From contig JWZX01002822.1 of the NCBI GenBank assembly GCA_001275005.1, forward strand, positions 1-36,000: a stretch of 36,000 nt of DNA, in the 5' to 3' direction. The position numbers were made by a program, and so were the translations under genes. Position 1 is the stretch's first letter. The number at the start of each line of letters is the position of its first letter. The notes beneath the pieces were generated by a model, which saw nothing but the letters and a program-made list of their open reading frames with translations, did not search any database and was not told where the DNA came from. The stretch is from Chrysochromulina tobinii (lineage: Eukaryota). This document shows positions 1 through 26,093 of the stretch, piece after piece.

Positions 1-1473
1 AAACTGCTCAAGGAGGCGAAGCACCTGCCCGCGGCCGAGCACGCGGCGACGCTCGAGCGGCTCAAGCGCGAGGGCAACGAGGCCAAGGAGGCGCAGCAGG
101 CCAAGAAGAGCCTGGATGCGCAGGACACGGTACTGTCGGACGAGGACATGATCGAAGGCATCTTGTTCTCCATTGGAGGACGTGTGCCACGGCCGAACAT
201 GAACGACGTGATTGCGGTGAATAATGGGATTTTGTCTGCGCTGCTCGGATGCAGTGCCGTCTGCCGTGTGTGGCGCATAGCTGCAGCGAGGCCAATACTC
301 GCGGCCGCGCTGGACAAGGTCCTTTCCAGTTACAAGCTCATCATGGACTTCTTTCGCACGAATCGCCTTAAAGAGATGGCAAGGATCGTCATAAAGAGTG
401 GGAAGTTTGTCAAGAAGCCTGCGCCGAACACGCCCGCGCTTGCCGCGAGCGAGAAGGAGCTCGCCTCTTGGCTGGTCAGCGGCTATGAGAGCGGTTGTGG
501 CTCCATTGTTGCCGACGACATTGGCCTCGACAGTGCTGGGCCGTGCGCTCATCTCATCTTGCACTTGTGGCAAAATGGAATTCACGGCCCTTTTGTGATC
601 GTCGCGCCCGAGCCGAGCTGGCCTTCGTGGCAGGAGGCGGTGCTGCAGCTGGTCAAGCTGCGAGTGGGTCTGGTTCGCACCGCCGACGAGCTCGTGTCCA
701 TGTCTCGTGTCCGCCTCATCGAGCCGCGGTCCAGCTCCACACCGAATCTTCTGCTCGTGTCCATGTACCCGGCGGCTGCAGACGACCTGAAGGTGCTGGT
801 GGAAGTGTTCGAGCAACTCAACTCGACGTTCAAGTTGATGATCTTTGACGAGCGGCAGTTCAGACCCCCTGGTCTCAGCTTGCGCCACGTGAACGCCTTC
901 GCGGACAGCGTGAATGGGGTGAGAAAAGACGGCGTGAGAAAAGAAAACGTGATACGGCTGACGAACGAGCATCTGCCTGGCGACGCGAGCGGTGTCATGC
1001 AAACCGTCAGCGACGCTTGCAAAGGTTTTGGCGGGCACGGCTGGCGGGACGAGCTCTTGGCGAATGTTAAACATCAGATGGACAGATTTTGCCAAGGCGA
1101 GCGAGCACAGCTGTTGCGCCAGTGGGCCATGGGTCATGTCGTGTTGCCCATCATGCAGACCCAGCTCTCCGGTGCACTCGTCATGCGTCGAGTCAACCGC
1201 GGTGGCCGACCTCATATTGTCGAGAGGGAGGTGCCGGAGCACATGCTGGTCGACGTCCACAAAGATCGCCACTGGATGGTCAACTCGGAGGTGCGCCTCG
1301 AGGGCCTCAAGTCGAAGCCTGAGTACAATGGTCGGGTGGGCCACGTGCATAGCTACGACGAAGAGGCCGAGCGGCTGCACGTGCTACTGGATGCGAGCGA
1401 GGCGGAGCCCGCGGAATGGGTCAAGGTGAAGGACGAGAACGTGGTTACGATCGCCAACATCAGCAATCGATGA
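1..1473 (+). CDS. 5'-truncated protein: F-box-like motif, degenerate SNF2_N (ATPase lobe 1)-like domain and C-terminal SH3-like beta module
   Basis: Frame is open from base 1 (KLLKEAKHL...) into the 148..1473 ORF. VLSDEDMIEGIL...LLGCSAVCRVWR resembles an F-box. SWLVSGYESGCGSIVADDIGLDSA...HGPFVIVAP...W, LMIFDE, IRLT and MRRV follow SNF2 motif order. Ends in VRLEGLKSKPEYNGRVGHVHSYDEEAERLHVLLD. Confidence 0.7.
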   Translation, partial: KLLKEAKHLPAAEHAATLERLKREGNEAKEAQQAKKSLDAQDTVLSDEDMIEGILFSIGGRVPRPNMNDVIAVNNGILSALLGCSAVCRVWRIAAARPILAAALDKVLSSYKLIMDFFRTNRLKEMARIVIKSGKFVKKPAPNTPALAASEKELASWLVSGYESGCGSIVADDIGLDSAGPCAHLILHLWQNGIHGPFVIVAPEPSWPSWQEAVLQLVKLRVGLVRTADELVSMSRVRLIEPRSSSTPNLLLVSMYPAAADDLKVLVEVFEQLNSTFKLMIFDERQFRPPGLSLRHVNAFADSVNGVRKDGVRKENVIRLTNEHLPGDASGVMQTVSDACKGFGGHGWRDELLANVKHQMDRFCQGERAQLLRQWAMGHVVLPIMQTQLSGALVMRRVNRGGRPHIVEREVPEHMLVDVHKDRHWMVNSEVRLEGLKSKPEYNGRVGHVHSYDEEAERLHVLLDASEAEPAEWVKVKDENVVTIANISNR

Positions 1474-1846
1474 CGGCCGCCTGCAACCGCGGTGCTCTTT
1501 GCAGGTGGGTCCGTGTCGCCGCCGTTAGCTCGGCTTACGGCTAGTCGGCTTTTAAGTCGGCTTTCTGTATAGTACAAGTCTTGCGGCGCTCTTGAGTCGC
1601 TTCACGCTTGTCGTGTGTATTGTGAATGAAATGATAACATCTCATATATCGAACCACGAACAGTTCTAGGGAGATTCGGTCTGAAAAACGTCGTCCTGAC
1701 ACGCGGCGCATACGCGCGCCGGCGCACATCACGGCGCCGGCGCGCGCGGCGCGGACAGGGTGACCGCAGGGCCGAGCCGCTAAGGGAAGCGGGGAACCCA
1801 GCCTCTCTGTGAGTGTTCTCCGAATCTCTCGTCGCTCTGCGGTCTC

Positions 1847-3072
1847 TCAATCTTCTTCCGCCTCCTCTACTTGTTGCCGCTGCTCCTGGTCCTGCTCCGC
1901 AATAGACCTCGCCAGTCCACGCACAACGTCGACGTTGCTCTCCATGATCTCGCGAATGCGTTCGAGGTGTGCCGCCATGCGACTCTCAAGGATCAGATCG
2001 GAAGCCGCGCCCACCAGCGCCGCATCGTCCGCCGCCGAGCCCCCGCCCTCGTCCGCCGCTCCCGAAGCCGCTGTGCGGCCTTCTTCTCGACGTAACGACT
2101 CAAGCCACTGCGCCACTGGCAGCGAGCCGGCCGTCGCCGCACGCGTGCCGCCCGGGGTTGCACCGACCGACTCGAGGCCCCAGAAGCGCGCTGCGCCGGG
2201 CACTCGTGGTGAAGGCGCCGCGACGGCGGGCGTGCGGCCCGGAGCGCCCTCCTGAGCTGCTTGCAGCCGTCCAGCCATTCGCGCCAGAGCGATGCGCGTC
2301 CGCAAGGTTGGGCGTACACCTGCAAGGGCCATCAGCCTCAGAGCCTCGATGGCGGATTCCAAATGGGTGGGAGAGCGGACCGCACTCAGCAGGGCGAGAT
2401 AGGGCGTCTCCACGGACACCAGTGCGGGTGCGGGAGTGCCGTGGAGTGCCCAGGACGACGGCGGCCGCGGCGCCGCCGCGCCCGGCGCGGAGGCGGCCGC
2501 ATCAGGAACGTCGTCGTCCGCCGCCTCGGGCGCATTGCCCGGCGCAACGGCCTGCTCCGCCGCTGGGTCCCGGGCGCCGGGCGGGGCCTTCAAGGCCCGC
2601 AGTGCCGCCTCGAAGTCACCCGACGCTGCATGCATGTGCACCAGCGTGGCGAGCAAGCGCGGGCGCGGCGCGACGTCGACCCTCGCGAGGCGCGAGAGCG
2701 CCAGCTGCTGTGCGTCTGCGGGCTGGCGCAGCCTCGCACGCCATTCAGCTCGCGCGAGGACACGGACGAGCTCATGCTCCTCGGTCGCGGTGCGCCGCGC
2801 TCCGCCTCGCTGCACGCTCGCCGTCAGACCATTCCCCAAAAGCGCCGCCGTCGTCGCTTGTAGGAGCGCGAGGGCGCCGGGTGAGCGCCTGCGCACACCC
2901 TCGCCGCTCTCGTGCAGCAGCCGTCGACAGGAGCGCTCGTCTACTCGGAGCCCCGCCCCCCAGAACGCGTCAAGCAGCGCAACGCACTGGTAGTACTCGC
3001 GCGCCGCCACGCAGCCGAGCAGTAGAGCACGCCGCGCCGCCGGCGGCGGCAACGGCGCCAGTTGCGAAGCTG

Positions 3073-3110
<38 letters not shown>

Positions 3111-4141
3111 GATGCGTGAGCGGCCGGTTTGGCCATCTCCCACTCGCTCGTCCCACCATACTCCTCGATGAACTCTGCCCTCGTGTACGCGTTGCCGTCC
3201 GCCGTGTCGATGCGCCTCTCCACATCGCCGGTCGCCGCCTTCGGCTTCCGCGCGGTTGCCAAATTTGGGTCGCTCGTGACGAAACCAATGGCGCGCATCC
3301 GGAGCGTGACGAGTGCCGCGTCCGCCGTCTGAGCCGCGTGCACACGCGCACGCGCCGCGACGAGCGCATCGTCGCGCAGTGCGCGCTGCGGCGCAAAGGG
3401 CAGCTTCGCCACGAGTGGTTCAACGACCGTCAGAGCTGAAGGAGTGTGCACCAGCCGCAGCAGCGCCCTGACCGTCTGGCCGCTCGGCGTGACCTGGCAG
3501 ATCTCGCAGGTCTTAATGAGAAGCAACGGCAGCCGGTCCAGCTGCCGGCCCGCCGTCGACGCCCAGGCCGCCGGCGCGCACGCCTCGATCAGCGCATCGA
3601 ACGACGCTCGGTTTGGCCGCATGCCGGCGCGCATCTGCTCCTGCAGGATCTTTAGGAGCTGCGCGGGCTCATTCGATGGCTCGCGCCGCGCCGCGGCGAA
3701 GACATGCTGCAACGTGTACGAGCTGGGCGCCACGCGGTCGGCACGCATCCTCTCGAGGATGCCGAGGACGCGCTCCACGCGGCCACCACCCACGCCCGAG
3801 CGAGTGTCGCGAGCAAGCATGCGCGCAGCCTCGTTGTACACGCGCTGCCGACCCGGTAGCGCCCGGCCGCCCAGTTCGTGAGTTGCAGCCCGGTTGAGCA
3901 CCTCGGGGATCAGCGAGATATGGCCAGCCGAGCCAAGCGCTCGCACCGCCGCCGTCAGGACCGAGGTCGTCAGCCACGGCCGTTCCAAAGCGGCGTCGCC
4001 GACGGCGCGATCAATGGCCGCGAGCGCCACGCGACGCTCGAGCATTGGTGTGCACAGCTCTGCCGTCAACCTATCGTGAAGGCGCAGGGGATTGGAGGCG
4101 GTCTTGGTGACGACGCGCACACGGGCCGACGTGGTAGCCAT
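1847..4141 (-). CDS. Pentatricopeptide-repeat (PPR)-like protein, 764 aa
   Basis: Long ORF with PPR-like units: VYNEAARML...LERMRADRVAPSSYTLQHVF, LQEQMRAGMRPNRASFDALIEAC, PYLALLSA...LRLMALAGVRPT. Start codon uncertain. Confidence 0.7.
3076..3110 (-). repeat. (GAGGAC)n hexamer microsatellite encoding poly-Ser in the PPR protein
   Basis: gaggacgaggac... on + strand; SSSSSSSSSSSSS in the minus-strand ORF. Confidence 0.85.
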
Positions 4142-4347
4142 GTGTACGGTACCTCAGGACGTCGGCCCCACGTGGCTCGAAAACGGTATGTGTGAACGTT
4201 AACACGACAGACGCGACAACCGGTGCTACGGTGGAAGTGCCGAACGGGATCCCTGTTTCACTGACTCTCGCTCAAATGCTCAAATGATCTACCTGATCAT
4301 TCACGGCCTATTCATTCATACATCTCGACATAGGCGACCCAACCGCC

Positions 4348-7300
4348 ATGGAAGCGAGACCGCTGCGGGCGTGGGCCGACCCTACTCTTGTTCAGCAGGC
4401 TCCAGCAGCGAACCCACAAGCACACGCCTCCGCAGTGCGTCGGCAGCAGCCGCCGCCGCCGCCGCATACTCTTGTTCATCATCAAATGGTGAACCCGAAT
4501 GAAATTGAACGGAGGGCTGCTGCTGAGCGCTCCCTCTCGCTTCGTGTGACGCAAATGGTGGGCGCCCGTCCAGCGCCAGTGCTAGGCAGCGCCGCGCCCG
4601 ACAGCAGCTGTGGCTATTCACAGCAGCAGATGCCGATGGGCTATCCGCCACCGCCGGGCTATTACCAGCAGGGTCCGGCCGCCGCTGGTCCGCCGTTGCC
4701 GGGCTACTACCCGCAAGGTCCGATCGCTGCCGGCTCAGCCGTGAGGGCCGTGTACAATAATCGGCCGCAGAGCCCGGGGCCATCGGCCCTGAGCCGCTCG
4801 CAGCAGTCCTTGATGGCTCCCGCTGGCGCTCCCGCTGGCGCTCCGATGGGCGCTGAGCATATGTGGCGCTCGAGTTCGGGCGCGTCGATGAGCCACCGCG
4901 ATGCGCTCAACGGCAGTGGGCTTGCGGCGCCGCAGGTGCGCACGGGGCCGGATCCGGACTTTCGGTGGCGTCTCGACCCGGCCGTGGCCGCGGCGAGCAG
5001 CGGCGGCGGCGGCGAGCCACGACCCGGCGGCAGCGCCGAGCAGCGCGCGGAGCGAATGGCCGCTGAGAATGCCGTGCTGCGCGAGGAGCTGCGCCGCATG
5101 CCCGAAGAGCTGCAGCGCTCGTCGCGGCTGGACCAGAAGCGGCTCGAGGGCCAGATCTCTCGGCTGCAGTCCGAGGTCCGTACGCTCCTCGCCGACGTGG
5201 TCGCCGCCAAGGAGGGACTGAAGCAATCCGAGCTGCGCATCGAGGCGGAGTGTGCGGCCGCCGCCACTGTGGCCCACGATGAGGCCTTCGAAGCCGCGAG
5301 GGAGGAGAAGGAGAAGGCGCTCCGGCTCGCCGCGACCCATGCGGCCACGGCGCTCGAGGACGCGCTGTCGCGGGCGAAGGCGGAGCGCGATGCGGCCCTT
5401 GCGGCGGCGGCAACGCGATCGGAGAGAGCGCTCGCAGAGGAGAGGCAGCGCTCGCAGCGCGAGATCGCGGACGCGATCGCGCGAGCGAAGGTGGAGGCGG
5501 CCGAGGCCATGGCGGCGGAGAAGGGCGAGCTGCATGCGCGTCTCGAGAGGGTGGCGCAGGAGGCCGAGGCCATCCGCGACGAGCTTGGTCGCTCCAAGCG
5601 CGCGATGGAGGACACGGTGCAGGCCGAGCGTGCTAAGGCGCAGCACGAGCTGCAGGCGGCGGCGGAGCGTGCGGCGGCGGACCTCGCGGCGGCGGCCGAG
5701 AAGGCGCAGCGTGAGCAGGCGGTGGCTCTCAAGGCGATGGAGGAGAGCTACCTGGCGAACCCCATCATCAAGGAGGTTGAGGTCATCAAGCAGGTCGTCA
5801 AGGTCAAGGAGGTCATCAAGGAGGTCCCTAAGCCCGTGTACGTCGAGGTCGAGAAGGTGGTGTACCGCGAGAAGGGCAAGCCCAAGACGGCGCTGCCTTG
5901 GGAGCAGCCACGGCCCAGGACGGCGCCCTCCGGACTGCCCAGGACGGCGCCATCAGGGGTCGCGGACTCGGTCACCATACCCGCGGCCGAGGCGATCGCT
6001 CTCGATGCCGCGGAGCGTTTGACGTCGCTGAAGCTCGCAGGCGTGCCAATGAGCCCGGGGCAGCGCCCGCCATCGGGGGCGGCGGCCCGCGCGTCGTCGG
6101 CAGGGGGGATAGGGAGGCTTGCCATCCCGCCGGCGGTGCCCGGTACAGCGCTGCCACTCATGCTTACGGGGACGGGGCCGGCGCCGGCGCCCGGTACAGC
6201 GCTGTCCACGCAGCCATCTGTCGAGTACATCATGCCGCCGGCACCGCAGCCCTCCGAGGCGGGCCCGTTGCCGCCGCAGCCGTTGCCGCCGCAGCCCGCG
6301 CCGCCGCTGCTCCCTGTGGATGAGGAGGCGCTTCTGGCGGCCATGCGGCTGTTGACGAAGCTCGAGCAGCAGGCGGCGGAGGCGGCGAGGGGACCCATCT
6401 TACCGTCGCCACGACGCTCGCAGCCCTCGGCGGACTGTAATCAGCTGATGGGGCCGAGCGCGCTCATGCCCAAGACGGCGCCGAAGGAGCCCGAGGGGCG
6501 CGCCCAGGACGGCGGGGGTGCCCAGGACGGCGTCTTTGTGACGCAGGCTTGCGCCGACAGCATCAACTTCGAGGGCGGTGCCACGGCCGCGCTCGGCATC
6601 GGCGCGCCCTTTTTGGCGGCGCTCGAGACATTCTATATGCAGCACGGTGTTGCAGGTGAGACGACGATGGCGGAGCTATGCGGCGGCGGTGAGCGCATGC
6701 CGCTGAGCGCGACGGTGCAGCAGCTCACCGCGCACACGGGCACTTCTCTCGCGCGCGCGTGCTTCGATCTCGCGCGTCTCGAGCAGGTAATGGCCACTGA
6801 TGACCCCTGATGAGCACTGACCGCCTACGAGTGCCAATGAGCTGAGTGCCTCTGAGTGTCACTGATTGCCTCTGAGTGCCACTGATTGTGGCACTCGCGC
6901 TGTTTGTTCGAGCAGGTGGACACGTCGAGGCTGTTTGGCAGACCGACGCTCCTCCTCAGCTACCCGTCCTCCTCATGCATCGCCGACCTCATCGGCGCTG
7001 CGCAGAGTAGGCTTGGGCGCGCCGCGAGCGCCGCCGCGAGCGCGCCGCCGGCGGCGTTCGCGTGGGTGGACGGTTTCTGCGCCTCTCAGCATGCATCGGC
7101 CGCGGAACTCCATGCGCAGGTAATGAGCCCTGATGAGCCCTGATGAGTATTGACGAGTATTGATGAATACGGATTGCCTATGATTACCCCTGATTGCCAC
7201 TGATTGCCACTGACGTGGAGCTCCATGTGCTGATTGCCACTGATTACCCCTGATTGCCACTCATTGCCAGTGACGTGGAGCTCCATGTGCTGATTGCCAC

Positions 7301-9525
7301 TGATTACCCCTGATTGCCACTGACTGCCAGTGACGTGGAGCTCCATGTGCAGCGGCCCGCGTGCAAGGAGGTGGTGCTCTTCTGCTACCCGCTCGTAGGC
7401 GCATGGGCCCGCCCGGACGAGCCGTTCATGTTGACCAAGCCCGCCACGCCACGTGGCGTCAGCCCGCCGCGCCACGCCCAGGCTACGTCGGGCCTCGGCG
7501 CGAGCAGCGGTGGGGTGGAGGGCGCTGCCATTATGGGCGCCGGTACGGCGCTCAACGGCTCGACGCAGCGCTCGGCCGAAGGGCCGATGGCGCTGAGCCG
7601 CGCTCAGTGCGTGCTCGAGGCGGCGGCGGTGCTCGCCTCGGGCGGCCGTGTGCACGTCGAGCTTGCGACGCATGAGTGGTCGGACCTGCCCGCTCTGCTC
7701 GAGACGTCGCTGGGTCAACTCGATCAGAGCATCCGAAGCGCGAGCGTCGATGGACTCCAGCTGCCCTCCTCCGCCTCTGCAGGCGCGATGCGAGCCCGGT
7801 TCGAGGCGCTCGAGGGGGGCGCTCCAGGCGCGCTTGCCGCTGATGAGCCCTGATTGCCTTTATTGAGTACCACTGATTGCCACTGGTTGCCACTGGTTGC
7901 CACTGATGGTGGCGCTCGCGCTTCTCGCTCCAGGCGCGCTTGCCGCTGTGCAGAGGGCTGTGCGCGGATGGCTCGCAGCTGAGGGTGCGGCGGCGCTGCG
8001 TCGGCTCGAGGTAGAGCGTGGGCCGCGCACGCCGCTGCCACTCCGACTCGAGCTCGCGCAGGTGTGCTGATGACCTCTGATGACCTCTGATGACCTCTGA
8101 TGACCTCTGATGACCTCTGATGACCTCTGATGATCTCTTGTGCAGTTGCTCGCGGCGCTTGGGCGACCCGCGGAGGCAGAGGCACTCCTCGTGCATGAGG
8201 CGACGGTGCGAGAGGAGCACTCCGGCGCTCGGAACGCCGAGACGCTCGCTGCGGTCAGCTGTCTCGCGAGGCTGCTTGCCCAGGAAGGGAGGACTGCCGA
8301 GGCGACGCAGCTCTACCGGCACGCCCTCGCCGAGTACGAGCAAGGCTTTGGAGTGTCGTCACCCCTCACTCTCCGTACGAGCGTCGCCCTCGCCGAGCTG
8401 CTCGCCGATCAACGGCTCACCGACGAGGCTGCGTCGCTGTACCGCGGCGCACTCAAGGGGCTCGAGCTCACGCTGGGCCTCGCGCACCCGCTCACGCTGC
8501 AGACGACCGATGCGTACGGGATGGTGCTCGCGGAGCAAGGCAAGCGCGCGCTCGCCGCGTCCGTCTTCAAGCGTGCGCTCGAAGGCTACCAGAAGGCCTA
8601 CGGCGCACGCCACCCGGAGACCCTCGGTACCATGAGCAACCTGGCCAACGCGCTGCGCCTTCAAGGGAAGCTCGAGCCGGCGGCGCTCTACTACGCGCAG
8701 GCGAGCCGTGGGTTGATGCTCGCGCTCGGGGAGACTGATCGAGAGACGCTACGGGCACTCCATGGGTTCGCGCAGGTGCTCGCCCTGCAGAAGAAGCACG
8801 ACGAGGCCGCTGAGTACTTCCGGAAGGCTTATGAGGGGCGCCAGGCGCTGCTAGGGGATGAGCACGTGAGTACGCTGCGCACGCTCGGAGAGTACGCGCA
8901 GTCTCTGGTCGTGCTCGGGCGTGTAGCTGAGGGGATCGAGGGGCTTCAGCGCTGCCTGCATGGCGCCGAGCGCGTGCACGGCCCTCAGCACGAGGACACC
9001 CTCAACGCCATGGAGCGCCTCGCCGGTGCGCACGACAAGGCCAAGGAGTACGTGAGCGCCGAAGGCTACTACCGGCACGTGACCGAGGCGCTGGCGCGCA
9101 CTCTGGGCGTACGGCATGAGCGCACCCGACACGTGGCCGCGAAGCTCCTCGACAACCTTGTGCAGCAAGTCAAGCTTGTCGAGGCGCAGGACGTGGCCAA
9201 GCATTACAAGCTCGATCTCGCGCTGAAGCAGCCCAAGCGCACGCCGCCCGCATCGTACAGCGCCCTGAGCGCTCAGGACGGCGCGGGAGCAGCCCCGGTG
9301 CGCCCCGCAAACGGCGCTGTGGTCAACGGAATGGGAGGGCCGCCCCTCGTGCCGCGCAAACCCACCGTCGAAGCTGTCGTCACGCAACGGGCCATGGCGG
9401 CCGCTTCGGCCGCTTCGGCCGCTTCGGCCGAGCCAGCTGCGAGCTTGCCCGCGCCCGCGCCCGCCTTGTCACCGTGGGGCACGACCGACGCACCGCCGAG
9501 TTCGCCGAACGCTGCCGGCCGATGA
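4348..9525 (+). CDS. ~1541-aa protein: Pro/Gln-rich N-terminus, long coiled coil, HET/TIR-like domain, kinesin-light-chain-type TPR repeats; exons 4348-6786, 6916-7119, 7353-7827, 7934-8061, 8146-9525
   Basis: Four introns (three GT-AG, one GC-AG) join ORFs 4348..6810, 6886..7143, 7314..7853, an unlisted short exon and 8140..9525 without frameshift or stop. TPR_10/12-type repeats such as YGARHPETLGTMSNLANALRLQGKLEPAALYY. Confidence 0.82.
6787..6915 (+). other. Intron 1 of TPR gene (129 nt, GT-AG, phase 0), decamer-repeat type
   Basis: CAG|GTAATG...TTCGAGCAG|GTG; filled with TGATGACCCC/TGAGTGCCTC-like units; TCGAGCAGGT repeated at both boundaries. Confidence 0.85.
7120..7352 (+). other. Intron 2 of TPR gene (233 nt, GT-AG, phase 0), decamer-repeat type with 60-bp higher-order repeat
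   Basis: CAG|GTAATG...ATGTGCAG|CGG; strict 10-nt register; frame preserved into ORF 7314..7853. Confidence 0.85.
7181..7350 (+). repeat. ~2.8 copies of a 60-bp unit (four TGATTGCCAC-like decamers + TGACGTGGAGCTCCATGTGC)
   Basis: Units at 7181-7240, 7241-7300 and 7301-7350, read directly. Confidence 0.9.
7828..7933 (+). other. Intron 3 of TPR gene (106 nt, GC-AG, phase 1), decamer-repeat type
   Basis: CCAG|GCGCGC...CTTCTCGCTCCAG|GCGCGC; removal gives continuous GAPGALAAVQRAVRGWL. Confidence 0.8.
8062..8145 (+). other. Intron 4 of TPR gene (84 nt, GT-AG, phase 0) containing (TGATGACCTC)6
   Basis: GCAG|GTGTGC, six perfect decamers 8068-8127 plus one variant, then TTGTGCAG|TTG. Confidence 0.85.
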
Positions 9526-9926
9526 GAGTAACATGAGAGCATAGAGCATGCACTGATGTGTGCAGCGGCATCCGTGTTGAGATGACAGGCATCAGACCGT
9601 AACGAGTGTTGGCCACGGCCCCTCGTATCCGGGATCTAGTCGTCAGGTTGGCGGCCGACGCCGCGGGGCCGCGCGTGATACATATGCGCGCGGCGGTTCG
9701 CGGGGCGCGGGCGGGGTCGGGGTCGTCGCACGTCGGCGTCGCCGCGCCGGGCCGATGTGACTTGTGTGCGAATTTGTGGTGATGGAACCTACTTTAACTG
9801 GATTCGAATCCACTTGGCGGGATCCCCTACACACGACTTCACCACTCAGACGTTCGTGCGGGTCTTCGACGTCGACCGGCGCGGTATTCGCACGTTGCCG
9901 GCACATGCCTCGGCTGGCCTCGGGTT

Positions 9927-10391
9927 TCATGTCACTGAGGATGGAACCAGCAGGTCGGGCAGTCCAAGCGAGTGGCGACGTGCAAGCGTGCCGTCCAGTT
10001 CGGAGAGCAGCCGGAGAAAGGCTGCATTCTTCAATAGAAGTTCGACCTCAGCTTCAAGCTGAGCCGGCGTGAGAGTCGTAGGCGGTGGCGGCCCGTTGAT
10101 CACGATCCCCTTGAAGCGAAGATGCTGAAGCACGACCGCTACGTCTCGCTCGGAATGACACTCGGCTAGGAGCGCTGGGCCGCGCGATGCGGGGACGAGC
10201 ATGATCTTGGAGTCCAGGCTTCCGAAGATAAGAGCGCCCAGCGGCTGATGCAGAACCACTGTTCCACCAGACTGGCAGACGGTGCAGTTCACATCGCTGA
10301 GCACAAGGGTTGCTGCGTCCGCCAGAGCTGCGAACTGGCCCGTGAGCACGTCCTCGCGCGCGACGCGGACGGGCACGGTGAGCGACGGCAT
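9927..10391 (-). CDS. 154-aa hypothetical protein, PH-like beta-rich N-terminus and C-terminal helix (possible REC114/PHS1-like)
   Basis: First ATG in the 9927..10490 ORF is at 10391. Globular, non-low-complexity composition; C-terminal VELLLKNAAFLRLLSELDGTL. Confidence 0.5.
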   Translation of the reverse strand: MPSLTVPVRVAREDVLTGQFAALADAATLVLSDVNCTVCQSGGTVVLHQPLGALIFGSLDSKIMLVPASRGPALLAECHSERDVAVVLQHLRFKGIVINGPPPPTTLTPAQLEAEVELLLKNAAFLRLLSELDGTLARRHSLGLPDLLVPSSVT

Positions 10392-10632
10392 GGGCGCTGA
10401 CCTCCGAAGGAAGAGACGGCGCCGCTCGCTCTCGCTCGTTCCTTCGCCGCCTGTGGACGGCCGCCGATCGATCGGCCCCTGTCCACACACATGTGTGAAT
10501 GTGAAAGTGTGTCTAACGACGCACAGTCAAGTATAGACTTGTCTTGACACATGTGCACGGCACGGCGCCAACCGCCCACCGGGTCTCTACACGACGACAC
10601 AGACGTGGTATGACGACACACCGCTGGGCGAA

Positions 10633-12540
10633 TCAAACGACCGCTTCGTTCGGTGAGTTGCTTGTTCTCACCCTCTCCCCTGGTGCTCGCAGGCCGGCGA
10701 AGAATTCCAGGTCGAGTGGTTCGTTCTTGTTCGTCCGCAGATGCTGCTCTGCGCGCAGCTCCCGCAGCACCTCGCGCGTCTGCTCGATGCTGAGAACACC
10801 CGAGTTACCAAAGTCCTTGTCGCGGAAGCGCGCGCGCATTGCAGTCTTGCTCAGCCCCGTGCGCTTGCTCAGCTCGCAGAACTCGGTGATGTCGATGGTG
10901 TTGCTACCGTCGACGTCGAGCTGTTTGATGATGGCCGCATCTGCCTCGGCAACGTTGCGCTCCAGGGTCGCTTCCCGACATTTGAGCACATCTTCGATCC
11001 ACTGGATGAGCCGCGACCTTGTCTCCCTCGTGTCCTTCGGGTAGTACAGGCGGAGTGCCTCCTCAAAGTTGGATGGCTCAAAGCTGGGCAGGCGGGCGGC
11101 GTGCCAGGGCACGCTGCCACCACCGCTTTTAGTTGCCTTTTGCTGCGCGATATCCTTGTAGAGGTTGAGGACATCACGGCGTCGCGGTTGAAGATCCTTG
11201 GGCAAAGGCTTCACCACGAAGGCGTTTGTCGCGATGGTGTCCTTCTTTCTTAGCGTGAGGATCAACTCCTCGTACGAGATAGAGCCATCGCCAGACTCAT
11301 CGAACTCGCTAAAAATAGCGTGAATGTCGACAATCCTCGTCTCCGGAAGAATGGACTTGATGGTATCGGTAAACTCTTTTAGCGAAATCTCGCCGTTGCC
11401 ATCGACGTCGCACTTGTGGAAGAGGTCGATGACGCGGTCGAGCACATCGGCGCGCCGCAGCGCCTCGCGAAGCGACTGAACCTGGGCCCTGATCTCGTCC
11501 GTCCCTTGACCCTTTTTGGCCAGCTGCACCTCGTAAGCTGTCGGGACGAGCGAATCGTCGAGCATGCGCGCGAGCGCTTCGACGGAGTTTTTCCTGTCCT
11601 TTTTGCGCTTCTGCATTGCCGCTACCGCATCCGACGCATGTTGCGGACCAGACTCTTCAAAGCGCGAGTCAACTGCGTTGAGAATCGCTCCGAGCAGCGT
11701 GTTTTCGAGACCTTCGACTATGAGCTCATCTCTTTCGTTGCTCGCGTTGAAGTAGGAGTGAGCTGTGGCGGCTGTGACAGCTCCAAGATTGGCCGCTCTG
11801 TCCTTAGCATCGCTGCTGGGTTTGGGCGCACTCGAGAGCGCTGGCAGCGCCGCACTCGAGAGCGCTGGCAGCGCCCCTTCGCTCCGCGAAGCCTGCATGC
11901 GGCCAAAGCCCAAGGCAGCTGCCCCGAGGGCGACGGCCGATTGGCGCCGGAAAAAGGCTTTCGCGGCGCCCACATGCAGATTGGGCAAGGAGCCTTTTTC
12001 CGATGGATCAGCGGACACGGCAGCAGATGGGTCAGCGATCTCCACCCATTCCGGTTGTTCCGGCTTCTCCTCGCCAAAGACAGCCGCCAAGGTATTTTGC
12101 TCGAAGATGGGATCATCGAGCACTTCGAGCAGGCAAAGTGGTTCCGCCTGAGCCGCTGGGCTGCGCCGCTCGACAGCTGGAAGCTCCACGAGTAGTCGTG
12201 ACGGCGAGCCTTTAGTCTTGGCAAAGGAGCTGGAGCTCAGCGAGGCACTGGTTTGCAACGGCATCCCTGGCGGCACCCTCAGGGAGCCACCCACGCGCCG
12301 CGGTGGGCTGAGGCCTTTGGGACTAGGGGACGGCGGTTTGGTCATGGCAGCTGCAGCTGCAATAGAACCAGGCAGTGGCGGCAGGAAGAAGGGGAGCGGG
12401 ACGGCTAATATGGGCGGTGCCACGGGCCTGCCGAGACGGTCCCCGGGCAGCAGCGTCAACGGAGAGCCTTGGAAGAAGGCAGCACTGCTCTGCGAGGACG
12501 TGATCGACGTCCGCGCCCCAGAGAGAGCCGTCCCGGGCAT
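10633..12540 (-). CDS. EF-hand calcium-binding protein with two EF-hand pairs (start may be ATG at 12345)
   Basis: Loops DVDGNGEISLKE, DESGDGSISYEE, DVDGSNTIDITE, DFGNSGVLSIEQ. Confidence 0.8.
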   Translation of the reverse strand: MPGTALSGARTSITSSQSSAAFFQGSPLTLLPGDRLGRPVAPPILAVPLPFFLPPLPGSIAAAAAMTKPPSPSPKGLSPPRRVGGSLRVPPGMPLQTSASLSSSSFAKTKGSPSRLLVELPAVERRSPAAQAEPLCLLEVLDDPIFEQNTLAAVFGEEKPEQPEWVEIADPSAAVSADPSEKGSLPNLHVGAAKAFFRRQSAVALGAAALGFGRMQASRSEGALPALSSAALPALSSAPKPSSDAKDRAANLGAVTAATAHSYFNASNERDELIVEGLENTLLGAILNAVDSRFEESGPQHASDAVAAMQKRKKDRKNSVEALARMLDDSLVPTAYEVQLAKKGQGTDEIRAQVQSLREALRRADVLDRVIDLFHKCDVDGNGEISLKEFTDTIKSILPETRIVDIHAIFSEFDESGDGSISYEELILTLRKKDTIATNAFVVKPLPKDLQPRRRDVLNLYKDIAQQKATKSGGGSVPWHAARLPSFEPSNFEEALRLYYPKDTRETRSRLIQWIEDVLKCREATLERNVAEADAAIIKQLDVDGSNTIDITEFCELSKRTGLSKTAMRARFRDKDFGNSGVLSIEQTREVLRELRAEQHLRTNKNEPLDLEFFAGLRAPGERVRTSNSPNEAVV

Positions 12541-12843
12541 GCCTGCAGAGGTAGCCGAAGGACTCGACCAGTGCGGAACCTCACTGACTCCTCACTGACA
12601 GTGTTGGACGGCAGCCGCCGACGAACACCGCGTGACAACGCGCCCGCTCGGAATCCGGCTACAATGTATGTACTGTGTACCGTCCAAGGGACGCGGTTTC
12701 ACGATGCGAAACTGAAACCGCGGAGAATTGGAAAGACGTCCAGCGCAGCGTGCAGAACAAAATGTGTGGTCCAGAGACTGCGGCGACTGGGAGGTCTTTG
12801 AGCCGCACCATCTGTAAACTCATCAAGTTCCGTTTAATTTGTC

Positions 12844-13923
12844 ATGAAAATACCTGATACGTCGTCAATTCATCAATCATCAAGCCTTTCTGCATCGGAT
12901 CAGCTGCACCTTTCGTCGATGTCGCGTGAAAATGGCGGGATCGTCACCTCCAGGTCGCGGGGAAATGATGAGGCCGTCCACCCGCTTTCGCATCTGACCG
13001 TGCTGCCGCACGAACTCTGCTGCGCCATCATGCACCACATTGGCGACACGATGTCCATCGTCGCAGTGACAGCCACCTGTAAGCCGCTGATGGCCATGGC
13101 AGACTCGGACTTCTGGCGAGTGAGGCTTACTGAACGCTATCCCGGCGCTGAGCCGAGCGGCGACGCGAGCACGGTGCGCGACTTGTACAGCGTGCGATGG
13201 AAAAAGGCGCGCATGGAGCTCAATGACCTGAGTATCCCGGGCAGCAACGCTCCGCCAGTCGCGATGGTGAGCAGTAGCACTGGCTTGAGTGCGCGCAGCG
13301 CGAGCAACCCCCTGGAGTGCTCCGCGCGCGTGCTCCATTCCGCCAGCGTGATCGAAGGCGAGTTCAAGCGTGATTGCGACCAGCTCGCGAGCCTCGTCGC
13401 CAACGGGCAGATAGCGGCGGACGACATCGTCGAGTGGCTGCGCAGTGACGCGGCGACGCGTGCCCCGCTGACCGCGTGCGCTGCCATTGCCGTGCTGCAG
13501 CGCCGCCGCCTGCGCTCGGAGTGCGAACCGCACGCCCTCGACCTGCGCCTGCGGCCGCTGGCCCGCGCCCTGCAGCGACTTCGCCAAGGCACGCACGCCA
13601 CGCCGCCGCGCGTACTCTCGCAGCGCGTCGTGCTCAAGTGGACGGCATGGTCGTCGGCGCGCGACTGCCGAGGGTTCCGCGCGCGCGACGACCTGCGGCG
13701 GTTGCAGCCCACCTTGCAAGAGCTTCTCCTGTGCGTTGCCGATGAGGAGAGATCGATGGCACTCGAGGAGCCAGCGTCACCGCACAGCACGCCGCCGCGC
13801 ACGCCGCCCGGCACGCCTGAGTCGCATTCGGGAGACGCCGAGGCCTTTTGGCGCGTGCTCGCCCGCGGGGTCGTGCACGAGGTCCGATCCATCAGCCTCG
13901 CATCAGATGTAGAGGCGATGTGA
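12844..13923 (+). CDS. F-box domain protein, up to 359 aa
   Basis: LTVLPHELCCAIMHHI...IVAVTATCKPLMAMADSDFWR matches the F-box pattern; true start may be a downstream Met. Confidence 0.7.
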   Translation: MKIPDTSSIHQSSSLSASDQLHLSSMSRENGGIVTSRSRGNDEAVHPLSHLTVLPHELCCAIMHHIGDTMSIVAVTATCKPLMAMADSDFWRVRLTERYPGAEPSGDASTVRDLYSVRWKKARMELNDLSIPGSNAPPVAMVSSSTGLSARSASNPLECSARVLHSASVIEGEFKRDCDQLASLVANGQIAADDIVEWLRSDAATRAPLTACAAIAVLQRRRLRSECEPHALDLRLRPLARALQRLRQGTHATPPRVLSQRVVLKWTAWSSARDCRGFRARDDLRRLQPTLQELLLCVADEERSMALEEPASPHSTPPRTPPGTPESHSGDAEAFWRVLARGVVHEVRSISLASDVEAM

Positions 13924-13981
13924 ATGGCGGCCAACGCAGCTCAGTGCCAGAGATGGCGGCCAACGCGGCTTTCAGTGCCAG
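13924..13981 (+). repeat. Tandem duplication of ~28 bp immediately after the F-box stop codon
   Basis: atggcggccaacgcagctcagtgccag / atggcggccaacgcggctttcagtgccag. Confidence 0.75.
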
Positions 13982-14223
13982 TGCGGATGCTGTGCGGGGA
14001 CAAGGATAGCGATCAATATCCCTTATCGTGTACCATGTGTATATTTGCCAATCGGCGGTGTGATGCGTGGTCATAGTGAATTTTGGAGACTTCGTGCAAC
14101 GAACCAAATGTTCGACAAGTTAGAAAGTTGACGAAATGCCCAGTACGGCGCACCGTCCATCTAGATGGCCCTGGGAGCCCTGGGAGCCCAGCCTTGTTCC
14201 GTCGTGCTCGTTGGCCTCGACGA

Positions 14224-19284: not shown

Positions 19285-19989
19285 CCTGTCGTTTATTTGC
19301 GCGCCCGCGCACAGTCCATCGACTCATCACGTGCGGCGGCATCGATCGAAAGCTTTAGTATCTAGTATCTTTAGTATGTTATAAGCGCGGAAGAACTTAT
19401 CCCGCGTATCGTCGTCTGCGAAAAGTTACTTAGTGCGTTCGGTGAACGAAACTTAGTAACTTTCTCGTGTCTGAATATAAGAATATACCCACGTGTCGGC
19501 GGCGTTGGTCTGGTCGCGCTTATAGTTCCGGCAGCGTCGACGGTCGAGCTTCGCACGTGCCTCGTGCGCCACGCCCACGGTCCGTCCGGGTGTGTCTCCC
19601 GGTCACGCATATCGCATTCGATTCGCACCGCGCGGCCACCGGCATGGCGGCGGGGCCGGGGCGCCCGCGCGCGCGTAGTTTGAAAAATCGAATGCAAGCA
19701 CGGTCTATGTGACGCACAGCAGCAGTCTGTGACAGTCTGTGACGCAAATCACACCCACTGTGCCCGGGGCCGCGATACGAGCCGAGCACGGTGGGTGCGC
19801 GGGGGCTGTGAAGTGCGATAATAGCTGTGGCCAGTGACCTGTCGTGTGTATGTGCAATGTTGCCACAGAGTGACCCTCCGTTGCACGCTCCTCGCCGCTC
19901 GCCACCGGAGTGCCACTGCCACACAGTGCGGGCAGTGGCCAGTGCGGGACGACAGTGGCGACAGGCCCCGAGCGAGGCCACACGGTCCG

Positions 19990-20382
19990 ATCGCAGCGCT
20001 CCTCCGCGGGCCGCAAACGACCGGACGACGACGACTGGACGATAAGGACCACGACGGCGAGAGCGCCATGGATGACAAGTGAATGCTTGGAGGTTGGCGG
20101 GATTGACGAGAGCGTCGCATGTCGCGCTGGCTTCCCCAAAGAGAGTGCAGACCCACCGGAGTGCCCCGCGGCCCGTCGCCCATGATCGTATGAGAGCTCG
20201 GCCGGCCGTGCAGCTGAAAGCCGGGCAGACACAGGAGCATGCAGGAGGCTTTTGCATGGCGGTACGCCCCACATGGAATGTGAGGAAACGGCCTCTGACA
20301 GTGAGCCTACAATTTGAAATGCTGTACCATTTTGGCCGAGACGGTTGTAATATGATGGGGGCGCGAGTTGTGTGTAATTATG
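19990..20382 (+). pseudogene. Degenerate inverted copy of the RB gene 3' coding end, stop codon and downstream region (22463-22853)
   Basis: For example gacggcgagagcgccatggatgacaagtgaatg (DGESAMDDK*) and long matches to the reverse complement of 22463-22853, with many small indels; weaker similarity continues to ~19880. Confidence 0.85.
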
Positions 20383-20481: not shown

Positions 20482-20830
20482 AGACATGCACGTCACGGAC
20501 CAGGGCAAAGCCCAGACCAGCGCAAACTCTGCTGCTCATTCCCACCACCTCTCTCCAGTTAGGCAGCCATAGACCCTCTCTCTGTACTTGCACTAGGCAT
20601 GCACGTCACGGACCAGGGCAAAGCCCAGACCAGCGCAAACTCTGCTGCTCATTCCCACCACCTCTTCTCGCCAGTTAGGCAGCCATAGACCCTCTCTCTG
20701 TACTTGCACTAGACATGCACGTCACGGACCAGGGCAAAGCCCAGACCAGCGCAAACTCTGCTGCTCATTCCCACCACCTCTTCTCTCCAGTTAGGCAGCC
20801 ATAGATCCCTCTCTCCGTACTTGTACTTGC
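20482..20830. repeat. Three tandem copies of a 113-116 bp unit downstream of the RRM gene stop (likely 3' UTR)
   Basis: Unit starts at 20482, 20595 and 20711 (AGRCATGCACGTCACGGACCAGGGCAAAGCCC...GTACTTG). Confidence 0.9.
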
Positions 20831-20890: not shown

Positions 20891-22244
20891 TCAGTCTGCG
20901 CCGTGACGCACGCGTGGGGCGAGCGGTCAGCACGGATCGCAAGGCACATCCAGCCATGCGCAGCAGGTGCAGGTGCGGCACTCGCCGCACTCGCGGCAGG
21001 CAGCAGCAGCAGTAAAGATCCGGTGACAGCACAGCGCGCGGCGCATGCCGCGTGCACTTACAGCGGGGACGGTCGTATGGATCGCGTGTGGGTGGACGGT
21101 CGTAGGGGTCGCGCGGGGCAAGGTCACGAGGGTCGCGCGGCGGCGGCAGACGATCATATGGGTCGCGACCGTAAGGGTCGTCACGAGGATCGCGCGGCGG
21201 CGGGTAGTCGCGTTCACGTTCACGCTCCGGATCGCGCAGCGGTGGGTAGTCGCGTTCACGTTCACGCTCTGGATCGCGCAGCGGCGGGTAGTCGCGTTCA
21301 CGTTCACGCTCCGGTAAGGCGGGCCGCCGCTCTTCGTAGCGTCGATCGTCATAGCCGCGCGGAGCATACTCGCGTGGTGGATAATCGTCGTAGCGCGGCG
21401 GTGGCGGGCCGCGATCGCGCTCGTCGTACAGGCGGCGGTCGTCGTAGCGCGGAGGCGGCGGGGCGCGGTCGTCGTACCGGCGATCATCGTAGCGTGGCGG
21501 AGGCCCGCGGTCCTCATAGCGCGGCGGTGGCGGCCCCCGGTCGTCGTAGCGCGGCGGCGGCGGCCGATCACTGTAGCCGCCACCAGTCGGAGGGCCGGCG
21601 CCCTTGCCGGCGCCCTTGCCTCTGGCGTTGTAGTCGGTTCGCAGCTTGGAGTCAGCGATGATGTTGAGGGCATTGTGCGCCTCGCGCGCCTGGTCCACGT
21701 TGGCAAAGTCGACGAAGGCCGCCTTGGTGTCCGATTTTTTGGGCAAGAACTTGACTTGCAGCACCTCGCCGTACTTTGAAAAGTGGCGGCGGATGTCCTC
21801 CTCGAGCACGTTTTCCGGGATGTTGGCGACAAAGAGGTTGGCAGTGGCCACGCCGCTACTGCGGTCGCTGCGGCTGTTGCCACCAAACCCGCCGAAGCCA
21901 CCGCGCGAGTCTGCGCGGTAGTCTTCTTCAGGGTACCGCGAGGTCGGAGCAGCGCGAGGTGATGGCTTCTCGCCCTTGGGTGGGCGCCCCGAGAGTTCGA
22001 CAGTGATGGTGCGGCCGCCAATCTGCTTCCCGTTCATGCTCGCGATGGCGTCCTCGGCGTCGCGCTGGTCCGCGTAGTCGATGAACGCGAAGCCTTGCTT
22101 GTATGACATCGACGTGATCTGGCCGTACTCGGTGAACGCACTTCGGACCGTATCCTCGTGCAGCTCATAATTAATGTTGCCGACATAGATCCGTCGGCCG
22201 TCAGAGGCCTCGCCACCTTGGTACGGCTGCGGTGCGCGGGACAT
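20891..22244 (-). CDS. 395-aa RNA-binding protein with two RRMs and an RD/YDDR/Pro-rich tail (SR/hnRNP-like); exons 22244-21062 and 20895-20891
   Basis: RNP2/RNP1 motifs IYVGNI...GFAFIDY and LFVANI...AAFVDF. The intron GTAAGT...CTGAC...GCAG splits the last codon, giving ...YDRPRY*. Confidence 0.85.
20896..21061 (-). other. Conventional GT-AG intron (166 nt) in the last codon of the RRM gene
   Basis: Consensus GTAAGT donor, CTGAC branch motif, GCAG acceptor; no decamer repeats. Confidence 0.8.
21190..21312 (-). repeat. Three copies of a 42-bp coding repeat (PERERERDYPPLRD)
   Basis: Visible in both the translation and the DNA. Confidence 0.8.
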
Positions 22245-22762: not shown

Positions 22763-25700
22763 TCACTTGTCATCCATGGCGCTCTCGCCGTCGTCCTCAT
22801 CGTCGTCGTCGTCGTCGTTGGCGGCCGCGGAGGAGGAAGCTGAGCGCTGCGATGACGCGCTCACCTGCGACGCGTCGAAGACCTCATGTTTGCGCTTCAG
22901 GCTGCTCGCCAGGCTGCTGCCACCGCCACCGAGCGTCCGCCGCCCCGCATCGCCATTGGCCGCCGCCGCTACCGATGCGGGCGCTGCGCCGGTGGACGAG
23001 TGCATCGCGACGAGCGCATTCGCAGTGTCGGCCGAGCCGGCCGAGCCGGCCGCGCCGGTCGCGTTGATGTTCGCGTTGAAGTTGCGGAGCCGCTCGGCGC
23101 CATCAGCCGGAGTCTCCGAAAAGGACCAGAGCGTCCGAGTGCGCGGCGTCAGGTGGTGCGCGTTCGGGTTCCGATGCGACACGTACACCTCGGACGAGCC
23201 CACGTGCCGTGGCGACGCGGATCCTCTCGACTCGTTGATGTCGGGTGACGTCTTGCCCGTCGCTGAGGCGGCGGCGCTCACGCCGGCTGTTGAGGCGCCA
23301 GAAGCGGGCGCCGAGCCCGCGGCGCACACGGCGATCAGGTGCTCCTTCATCTTCGGGATGAAGATCAGGTTGTAGAACCGAATGATGTCTTGCGGCTCTT
23401 CCTCGGCCGTCGCCATGCGCACCTGATGAGTTACGCAATCAGTCAGGCCATCAGTAGCAATCAATGGTAATCAGGGCGACAGCTCGGCCGTTGCCATGCG
23501 CACCTCGCGGAAGGTACGCGGCGAGGCAATCATGGGTAATCAGCGGTCATCAGAGGTCATCATGAGCTTCTCGAGGCGCACCTCGCGGAAGGTACGTGGC
23601 GAGGCGCCCGGCTGGCGCTTGTACTGCTCGATGATCTGGCGGAAGGTCACTTGCCGCTGATTGACCTTGCACACGCCATACACGGCGCACATGAGGATCT
23701 GGTCCAGATGGCGCCCAACGAGCAAGTCGCGCGCGGAATCGATGACGAGCTTGGACACGTCCCACACTTGCTGCGTCAGCGCGGCGTCGAGCAGCAGCCG
23801 CAGGCACAGCTCCTGGATGCGCTTGGCGGCAAGGTAGAGGTACTTGCGCACAAACTGTTCGAGCGCCGCGCGCGCGCGAGACGGCGCTGCTGACGAAGCG
23901 CCCGCTACGGCGCTGCGGCTCGCCGAGAACGTCGCATCGTACTCGGCCATGAGTGAGTGCAGCGGAGAGTCGTCGCACCATGCGAGGCTCTCGATGATCT
24001 TGGACTCGACGTCGGCAAAGTGGAGCTTGAGGTGGGCGGGCAGGTGCGGCTCGTGTCGGATGAAGGACTCAATCACCTTAGCGAAATTAAAGGCCTTGAG
24101 AGAAAGGACACGGAGGACTTCGGGGAAGCCCATGCCCGGGGTCGAGTACGAGGCGAAGACGCTCTCGAGGCAGCACGCGAGCAACGAGGTGTGGAAGGTT
24201 TCATTGGCGAGGAGCTCCGAGAAGTCGCTGTTGCCCAGCCTCTTCTCCTCGGCCATCAAGAAAGAGAGCAGCATCTTGAAGTAAAGCCGCTCTGAGAGCT
24301 CGAGCTGCTCCTCGACGGCCTCCTTCGACGGACCTTGCTCGTTGTCGAGCAGCATGTTGCGTGCGGCACTCAAGAGCCTAGCAAGACGCTCCTGCACGGT
24401 CGCCTTCACATTGGGCAAGCCGGCGGCACATTCGAAAAACTTGGCGAGCCCCGACGAGGAGGCGCCATTGTCGATTGTCGCGGGCGCCGCGCGGGTGAGC
24501 CAGCCCACAGCGTCGAGCTGCGAGCTCATCGGCGTCTGCGGGATGGCCTGGGCCGGCCGGCCGCCCATGGGGTTGCTGCTGCGCAGGGGCGTGAGCGGCA
24601 GCGCCGAGGCGTGACGCGACGTGCCCGTTGCGGCAGGCGCCACCGTCCCCCTGCTGCCACTGCCCGGCGGGGAGCTCATCGAGGCGTTCATCGACGCGGA
24701 GGAGGCCGTGTGTGAGGGCCGGTAGGGCGACGCGGGCACCGAGGCGTTCGGCTGGCGCGGCGGCGCGGGCTGCGGTTGCAGGAAGTAGGCATCATCGAGC
24801 TGCGAACGAACAACCGATGAGGAGAGAAAGGGAACGAGAGGGCGGGGGAGAGCAGTTGAGCAGTTGATCTGCAGGGGTCAAACAGGGACGGGCGCGCAAG
24901 CGCAGGCGCAGGCGATTGCCGCCGGGCCGCAGCGATAGGTTGGCACGCGGGGCAAGGTGCGTACATGGCACTTGGTACGCCAATCCGCCTCGTAGCGCGC
25001 GCGCACAAGCGACACGGTGCCCGCGAGGGCACTTGGAGATAGCAGGGAGCGGAGCTTTGCGCCTCCCGCCGCCGAGAGCTTGCCCTCGGCTGAGACGGGG
25101 CCGAGCTCAGGCCAGATGGTGGAGAGGCTCTCGAGGAGCGCGGTGATGGTGGGCTGCTGCTTGGTCAGCTCCTCGGGCACCGTCTTCAGATGGGCCCCTA
25201 GGAGCTCTAGGGCCGCCGCGGGCAGCGGGTAGCAGGGCGCACTCACGGAGAAACGAGGGTCGAGCTTAGGCCAGAAAACGGTGGCGGTCATGGCCTCCTC
25301 GGGGATATGCGCGAGGAGCAGATGCACGACGCAGGCTAGCAGGTGGTACGCGGGCAGCAACGACGACGCGCTCGCGCGGCTCGCCTCGTGGAACCTCGCC
25401 AGGGCGAAGAGCCACCAGCCGAGGTCGAACGAGAGTTTTTTAATGCAGGCCTCCTCGTCGCTGGCCCTGGTGCCGGAGAAGCCGTTTGGGAAGAGGTCGC
25501 GTGAGAACGTCTTCCACTTGTCGTGCATCGTGGCCGTGGTCACGTAGGCCTGCATGACGGGCTGCAGCTCGCCCATCTCCTCGCCAGGGAAGAGGCGTGA
25601 GTGCACATCTTTGACGCTCGTGAAAAAGTCCTTCAGGTGTAGCGCCAGTTGCGTTGTGAGCTCAGCGACGGAGATGCCGGGCAGCGGCTTGCCCATGGTG

Positions 25701-26093
25701 CTCGCCAGAAACACGACTGCCGCCAGCTTGCCGTGGTCGCTCATCTGCGCAGATTCCGACAGGTGGCGCCCTCAGAGAGGATGGCGTAACAGACTCAAGG
25801 ACCCCACCGGCCGCAGGGAGGCTTCACAAGAGAGTCAGCCTTGGGAATCTTGGTGGCAGCGTTGGCCAACCGTCAGGCAGAGCCGATAGCGCGCTGCCCC
25901 GCCCGAGCGCAGGCGTTGCACGCGCCTGGGGTGAGACATGGTCGTCGGAGGTTTGGAGCCTCTGCAGAAGCTCGACGCTGCCCGCCCGGATGTCACTGGA
26001 GTAGCCCTTTTGCTGGCACAGATTATCCAAATGGGTGAATATATCTAGTCCGCCGGCCGTCGCCGCGCTCGAGACACGCTTTGGAGAGTCCAT
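22763..26093 (-). CDS. RBR: Retinoblastoma-related pocket protein, ~941 aa; exons 26093-25926, 25744-24965, 24799-23582, 23422-22763
   Basis: N-domain GWWLFALAR...AYHLLACVV and YE...LDDAYFL. Pocket A FHTSLLACCLESV...FNFAKVIESFIRHEPHLPAHLKLHF...IIESLAW..DSPL. Pocket B GRHLDQILMCAVYGVCKV...TFRQIIEQYKRQP...DIIRFYN. C-terminal VYVS and LTPRT. All splice joins are in frame. Confidence 0.93.
23423..23581 (-). other. Intron 3 of RB gene (159 nt, GT-AG, phase 0), decamer-repeat type with an internal copy of the exon junction
   Basis: GAG|GTGCGC...TCATCAG|GTGCGC; TGATGACCTC/TGATTACCCA-like units on the sense strand; removal restores TFREVRMATAEEEPQDIIRFYN. Confidence 0.88.
24800..24964 (-). other. 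Intron 2 of RB gene (165 nt, GT-AG, phase 0)
   Basis: CAT|GTACGC...TTCGCAG|CTC with a pyrimidine-rich interior; restores the YE..LDDAYFL motif. Confidence 0.8.
25745..25925 (-). other. Intron 1 of RB gene (181 nt, GC-AG, phase 0)
   Basis: CCCCAG|GCGCGT...GCGCAG|ATG; joins ORF 25824..26093 to ORF 24878..25744 in frame. Confidence 0.7.

Follow-up and report, generated by a model that had tools for sequence, protein, structure and literature searches.

The source of new spliceosomal introns and of their sequence is a long-standing question. Target-primed insertion of non-long-terminal-repeat (non-LTR) elements and templated insertion by DNA polymerase theta (Pol theta) both give duplications of variable length, short overlaps at the joints and truncated inserts. 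The Emiliania genome paper is said to report intron repeats of 10–11 base pairs (bp). The accessible part of PMC2784329 holds no mention of them. Introners in metagenome-assembled genomes (MAGs) of Chrysochromulina have a 4-bp target duplication and lack inverted repeats, according to the available part of Gozashti et al. 2022 (bioRxiv 10.1101/2022.06.06.494994), and repeats of 4–30 bp are found near splice sites generally (PMC11782384, accessible part). The main text of Gozashti 2025, as far as it is accessible, makes no mention of haptophytes (PMC12130899), and the Chrysochromulina tobinii genome paper, in the part available, gives only one intron per gene (PMC4580454). A preprint from 2026 on nematode introns with a 10-bp period, also available in part, is not relevant. 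Here we describe the introns of two genes in a window of 36,000 nucleotides (nt) of C. tobinii DNA (the whole stretch analysed, contig JWZX01002822.1, positions 1 to 36,000), namely a TPR-repeat gene on the plus strand, called the host gene below, and RB on the minus strand. Several of these introns combine a copy of the adjacent coding sequence with a filler of units of about 10 nt (decamers). We regard this as a real, genome-wide and apparently undescribed variant of intron gain by duplication plus filler. No description of the design was found in the literature searched, with subscription papers and bioRxiv supplements outside its reach.

The duplication, the shared ends of the filler (stock ends), the two mirror forms of the arrangement and the exact restoration of the reading frame are observed directly. 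The reading we prefer, with a probability of about 0.55, is that these are lineage-specific introns formed by DNA template switching, which would leave a 10–56-nt coding duplication and filler matching the ends of other introns. The anatomy of the introns is well supported; the mechanism is what we infer from it. The features of the host gene are the following.

4348..9525, plus strand: host gene, five exons, 1541 amino acids from the ATG at 4348, C-terminal TPR_12/TPR_10 repeats.
6787..6915, plus strand: intron 1, GT-AG, 129 nt, decamer filler, acceptor from an exon-end copy (6908-6917 of 6779-6788).
6888..6901, plus strand: 14-nt non-decamer piece within intron 1, common to intron 3 (7909-7922), forming a short hairpin with the last decamer.
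7120..7352, plus strand: intron 2, GT-AG, 233 nt, diverged exon-end copy (7334-7352 of 7101-7119).
7828..7933, plus strand: intron 3, GC-AG, 106 nt, perfect 23-nt duplication (7820-7842 and 7926-7948).
8062..8145, plus strand: intron 4, GT-AG, 84 nt, seven near-identical decamers.

Excision of 6787-6915, 7120-7352, 7828-7933 and 8062-8145 leaves a single open frame with the TPR repeats at its end. An orthologue (P0254; 49% identical in 1354 aligned columns) shows no gap at any of the four junctions. The claim of the preliminary description that splicing restores the coding sequence exactly is supported, and all six strings that it quoted lie in place. The same alignment favours the intron 2 acceptor at 7352 over the in-frame alternative at 7340. 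Both P0254 and P0256 cover all four junctions and come without genomic context, so they confirm splicing and not the absence of introns. Introns were also called with a gene model trained without any duplication term. In the host gene this model places introns 1, 3 and 4 exactly, sets the acceptor of intron 2 12 nt upstream and adds a spurious 45-nt intron at 7934. The proteins returned for the host gene and RB are the NCBI models of C. tobinii. Both public host-gene models end within intron 3, which explains their broken state; one of them, KOO26649, represents only part of the gene. Assembled RNA contigs end at 6788 (two runs) and start at 6908 (one run) and 8142 (two runs), where a DNA run passes through, a weak hint of the branch points expected for introns 1 and 4. 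Other RNA contigs continue through intron sequence, and none of the four junctions is among the 15 of 97 joints listed for RNA and DNA contigs on window positions 1-19900. Exact protein look-ups gave no match in the collection for 6 of 20 queries, host gene exon 1 among them, and folding revealed no significant structure in any of five window introns.

The 23-nt repeat of intron 3 straddles the junction, with 8 nt upstream and 15 nt downstream, so both splice sites derive from the duplication. GC donors such as the one used here are frequent in Emiliania (PMC4028052, accessible part). Every one of 30 strain records has the intron. When exon 3 was searched twice, only two gene models and two clusters came back, and all 30 members listed for the clusters contain intron 3. 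In intron 2, exon-end copy and filler have been amplified as a 60-nt unit in three copies (core at 7212-7229, 7272-7289 and 7332-7349), and all 27 informative strain records carry the intron. Intron 4 is different. Its repeat has only 4 exact bases (7 of 9 matching), and a match of this quality is found in 2.8% of permuted pairs, 21 of 132 decamer introns and 4 of 59 decamer-free introns; taken alone it is weak evidence of duplication.

The frequency of the arrangement was estimated in 147 loci from one metagenome scan. They sample about 5,900 stretches that matched and were selected because they contain decamers. Thirteen loci (14 in later analyses) that overlapped or were non-algal were left out, as were arrays less than 120 nt from a locus end. 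An exact direct repeat of at least 10 nt between the 50-nt flanks is present in 81 of 240 decamer arrays (650 kb), compared with 1.2% of 2355 permuted pairs, 0.4% of distal flanks and 1.7% of inverted flanks. Repeats of at least 15 nt occur in 46 of the 240 arrays and 0.04% of permuted pairs. Inverted flank matches in the 240 arrays stay at background, in agreement with the earlier statement that terminal inverted repeats are missing. The duplication-blind gene model predicted 577 introns, 226 of which passed a flank-support filter. The preliminary description had suggested comparing boundary repeats between decamer introns and others, and the outcome supports it: long duplications are found in 37 of 132 decamer introns, 7 of 26 introns with a decamer-free module, 6 of 26 intermediate cases and 1 of 42 introns with neither module (44/158 module-bearing versus 1/42, P = 1e-4). 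Exact removal at GT/GC-AG boundaries is possible for 44 of 63 flank duplications of at least 12 nt, compared with 20% in the null, and impossible for 19; five further duplications of this length were dropped, having stock sequence inside. Two duplication-plus-decamer inserts cannot be spliced out exactly (L050:- 227 and L160:- 301). One of them seems, as read by eye, to lie antisense to a coding frame, and the other has GG at the donor position. Two decamer scans of viral contigs gave no matches. A scan of prokaryote genomes gave 14 loci, comprising 12 short chance arrays and two alga-like contigs inside bacterial genome bins (L008 and L013), the latter likely contamination.

Two mirror forms account for most of the 44 duplication-bearing introns. 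In 25 the copy of the downstream exon start comes first and supplies the donor, and a stock acceptor end comes last. In 15 the filler comes first, often with a shared start, and the copy of the upstream exon end comes last as acceptor. Both types of copy are present in four. The proposal that the duplicate always provides the acceptor is thus contradicted by the 25 cases in which it provides the donor. Duplication length ranges from 10 to 56 nt without any fixed value, as the preliminary description had it. Stock 3' ends are found in 20 of 22 donor-copy introns and in none of 15 acceptor-copy introns. One stock acceptor end recurs in 44 introns at 24 unrelated loci, and others recur at 4, 8 and 12 loci. 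The decamers comprise 106 unit variants among 859 units, the commonest making up 163 of them. A branch-point-like motif lies 12–45 nt from the acceptor in 38 of 40 introns of this kind versus 16 of 42 plain ones. Together, the stock ends at unrelated loci, the diversity of decamers and the branch-point-like motif identify the filler as copied intron material. Since a decamer-free stock piece shows the same duplications, the filler consists of copied intron parts rather than newly added decamers. Duplication-bearing introns share one end only and are not similar end to end. The fillers in the window share runs of 16–25 nt with other loci, reaching 67 nt for the pure array.

Duplication-bearing introns are also tightly sized. 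A length of 60–95 nt is found in 25 of 36 single-unit cases versus 11 of 114 introns without duplication, and the lengths of copy and filler trade off against each other (rho -0.75, P = 0.003 against a truncation null). Introns without duplication are longer, with a median of 170 nt, and may be older and expanded. Copies of a junction lie inside 33 of 158 module introns, 29 of the unspliced and 4 of the spliced type, with some calls depending on predicted boundaries. One intron (L051:+ 4436) has filler and exon copy tandemly amplified about five times. Of the 31 inner joints that could be scored, 10 have an overlap of at least 3 nt. A one-sided null gives 5.8%, an underestimate, since chance extension is possible for both matches.

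RB provides the case for gain. Its intron 3, described earlier as one intron with copies of the flanking exons, indeed has these copies and consists of two stacked introns; a 44-nt copy of the exon-exon junction lies at the centre. The other window introns listed here serve as plain controls.

23504..23581, minus strand: first half of RB intron 3, GT-AG, 78 nt, ending in a copy of the upstream exon end.
23423..23503, minus strand: second half of RB intron 3, GT-AG, 81 nt, a 21-nt copy of the downstream exon start first and a stock-like acceptor last.
24800..24964, minus strand: RB intron 2, plain, 0 shared bases, missing from orthologues too.
25745..25925, minus strand: RB intron 1, plain, GC-AG, 3 shared bases.
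20896..21061, minus strand: intron of the RRM gene, plain, 0 shared bases, boundaries from sequence alone.

With 3, 0 and 0 shared bases in RB intron 1, RB intron 2 and the RRM-gene intron, the statement that plain introns lack the duplication holds. Both halves of RB intron 3 fall in the 60–95-nt cluster, and the first is missing from records P0027 and P0003; two records carry the second only. In two strain alleles (P0029 and P0032) the second half is without its in-frame stop. RB proteins encoded on contigs of 247, 46, 39, 29, 19 and 11 kb read through the site of intron 3. They represent three lineages with 52–60% identity and align over the site without gaps, confirming exact removal of the whole. 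Judged from these alignments, RB intron 3 demonstrates lineage-specific gain, and the orthologous sites lacking an intron that the preliminary description called for are thus found at this one site.

Among close strains the picture is suggestive. The comparison rests on the translations of intron ends in cluster members; a cluster has up to 78 of these, of which no more than 15 are listed, and one contig can yield two records. Among the members listed, read-through with a single repeat copy is seen in 8 of 212 informative records, which come from 4 of the 14 sites. At one locus (L040), 5 of 13 records do so, one on a 45.8-kb contig, and all five end in the next unspliced intron. This suggests polymorphism in intron presence among strains, a pattern that assembly collapse could produce equally well. 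An all-against-all comparison of loci had few strain pairs and gave no case of presence and absence.

In the mechanism that we propose, a DNA polymerase would depart from a broken exon or from a fork stalled in it, use part of another intron as template and return to the original gene slightly upstream. This would be a possible route to new introns without a transposase. The stock piece would bring the branch-point-like motif and one splice site, the duplication would bring the other, and inserts that cannot be spliced would be purged. Newborn introns would measure 60–95 nt; slippage and local re-duplication would then extend them as the duplication decays, and exact loss by recombination could occur where the duplication is long and perfect. 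A Pol theta-like enzyme or break-induced replication would be candidates for the activity. Template switching of this kind accounts for the two mirror forms as well as for the straddling form, the mosaics and the stacking.

Among the alternatives, retro-insertion deserves the most attention and still seems unlikely. A non-LTR reverse transcriptase would prime at a nick on intron RNA or on a short introner resembling a short interspersed element, giving long target duplications of variable length and truncated copies. Variable duplications are indeed seen, and in the commonest form the fixed end coincides with the acceptor, which is where an excised intron RNA has its 3' end, and the other end is variable. 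Non-LTR introners exist as well, at about 5% of classified families (PMC12130899, accessible part). Priming at the RNA 3' end, however, does not predict the 15 mirror cases with a fixed 5' end and a variable 3' end, and there are no poly(A) tails among the printed introns. Decamer arrays judged by coding flanks are 165 sense-only versus 13 antisense-only, a bias that retro-insertion would give and that is also expected from selection for splicing. Quite unlikely, in our view, is a two-step origin, in which a whole introner inserts with a 2–6-nt duplication and later has one of its ends replaced by exon sequence in an aborted repair from an empty homologue or spliced complementary DNA. It would account for the roughly 70% of decamer introns that lack a long duplication. 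Introners with short duplications are reported in Chrysochromulina (bioRxiv 10.1101/2022.06.06.494994, accessible part), many of the decamer introns that lack a long duplication have stock-like ends on both sides (with GT directly after 56 of these), the duplication edges frequently fall exactly on the junction, and four introns, including RB intron 3, contain a junction copy of the spliced type. Yet internal copies are mainly of the unspliced type, duplication-bearing introns are shorter and tightly sized, and at the duplication-bearing sites examined all intron-bearing records keep the same intron end, with no older stock end. RB intron 3, made of two newborn-sized introns of which two records have only the second, also argues against two steps.

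The remaining two alternatives are far less probable. The preliminary description had favoured break repair with templated decamers. Its repair-like origin is the best reading; its preferred variant, in which a telomerase-like enzyme adds decamers de novo to staggered breaks, is very improbable. The strict 10-nt period, the flanking duplication and near-homogeneous arrays such as that of intron 4 would suit it, but the many decamer variants mean that there is no uniform unit, the multi-part non-periodic ends are common to several loci, and the decamer-free module behaves alike. Hardly more credible are old introns in which minisatellites expanded and slippage copied the exon edges. Secondary local amplification is common, as the internal junction copies show, and the decamers resemble branch-point motifs. 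Slippage in an intron-bearing allele cannot, however, put the downstream exon start directly after the upstream exon, and RB orthologues lack the intron.

Template switching itself has several observations against it. No long duplication, and no residual match beyond +5, is present in 93 of the 132 decamer introns predicted; the same design in all is therefore an overstatement on the genome-wide scale. The loci were chosen for having decamers, and the control group with neither module includes false predictions, which lowers its duplication rate. Many inner joints carry 1–19 extra bases instead of an overlap. Plain RB intron 2 is also read through in two of the three RB lineages and in one further relative, so gain is not special to duplicated introns. 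Among strain records, read-through is concentrated at repeats of at least 21 nt (7/97 versus 1/115, P = 0.025), as youth, exact loss and assembly collapse would each lead one to expect, and alleles with and without the intron share interleaved haplotypes. The RNA support is indirect.

A wider extension of template switching can be offered tentatively, with the odds somewhat against it. Chrysochromulina introns may breed without an element-encoded enzyme, host repair copying a splice-signal cassette from older introns into exons, along with a long duplication, as a tract of near-fixed size (60–95 nt); each new intron would be the next donor and exactly losable, in a self-feeding, reversible cycle still running in lake populations. 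Introns of the kind described here would escape searches that ask for similarity from end to end or for a duplication of fixed length. The scars are long and numerous and span a range of ages, the source of the filler can be traced, and the alga grows in culture and has public strain data; direct tests of donor loci, allele polarity and enzyme dependence are therefore feasible.

Several further features were noted. Loci L036 (190-1700) and L097 contain an element that has short A-rich repeats at each end and, within one of these ends, a decamer array; the copies have common ends and different middles. L036 was considered as a candidate source element and gave no Pfam hit in the two frames tested. 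In the RB protein of a relative (P0014), introns lie at two other positions and one read-through resembles the decamer-free module, which may be older and more widely spread. Two contigs of about 2.1 kb (P0004 and P0048) encode RB paralogue frames without introns 1 and 3 and with a foreign insert of about 80 residues, and represent either RNA contigs or a retrocopy. In the window, a further plain intron of 60 nt is predicted at 17375-17434 (plus strand) in a long open frame, with 4 shared bases. Positions 19999-20382 and 22463-22835 form an 84.5%-identical inverted copy of the RB gene end and downstream region, 2 kb apart, and a 116-nt unit is repeated three times at 20482-20827.

Compared with described systems, the introns resemble introners in part. 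A splice site comes from the target duplication and gain is recent at one site (RB intron 3), and families similar from end to end are not seen. A cut-and-paste DNA transposon would give terminal inverted repeats and a target duplication of fixed length, and neither is found. The fixed 3' end, truncated 5' end and variable duplication of non-LTR retro-insertion are seen in 25 cases and reversed in 15. Compared with non-LTR and Pol theta insertions, there are two mirror forms, no poly(A) is seen, and the filler comes from other loci and not from the flank. The Chrysochromulina introners of Gozashti 2022, in the part of that source available, are alike in genus, in the absence of inverted repeats, in having one carried splice site and one from the duplication, and in a size of about 70–110 nt. 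They differ in forming families of similar introns with a fixed 4-bp duplication, where the present introns have 10–56 nt on either side and mosaic interiors. They possibly overlap with our short-duplication majority; four decamer strings had no match in the part of the supplement searched (PMC9860276), which is without those consensus sequences. Tandem genomic duplication of an AGGT-bearing exon segment (PMC3443670, accessible part) resembles intron 3 in that both splice sites are duplicated and coding is unchanged. It differs in that here foreign filler lies between the copies and mostly supplies one splice site. Break-repair gain in Daphnia pulex (PMC4202315; review PMC3443670; both in their accessible parts) is alike in that the end of the adjacent exon is directly repeated on the far side of the new intron, and in internal repeats from repeated events; read-through in 8 of 212 records may add to the likeness or reflect collapse. 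The Daphnia repeats measure 4–12 bp and, as in the best-studied repair cases, the source of the filler is mostly unknown (PMC4202315, accessible part), whereas in Chrysochromulina the repeats reach 56 nt, total length is constrained, and the filler can be traced to other introns through shared stock ends.

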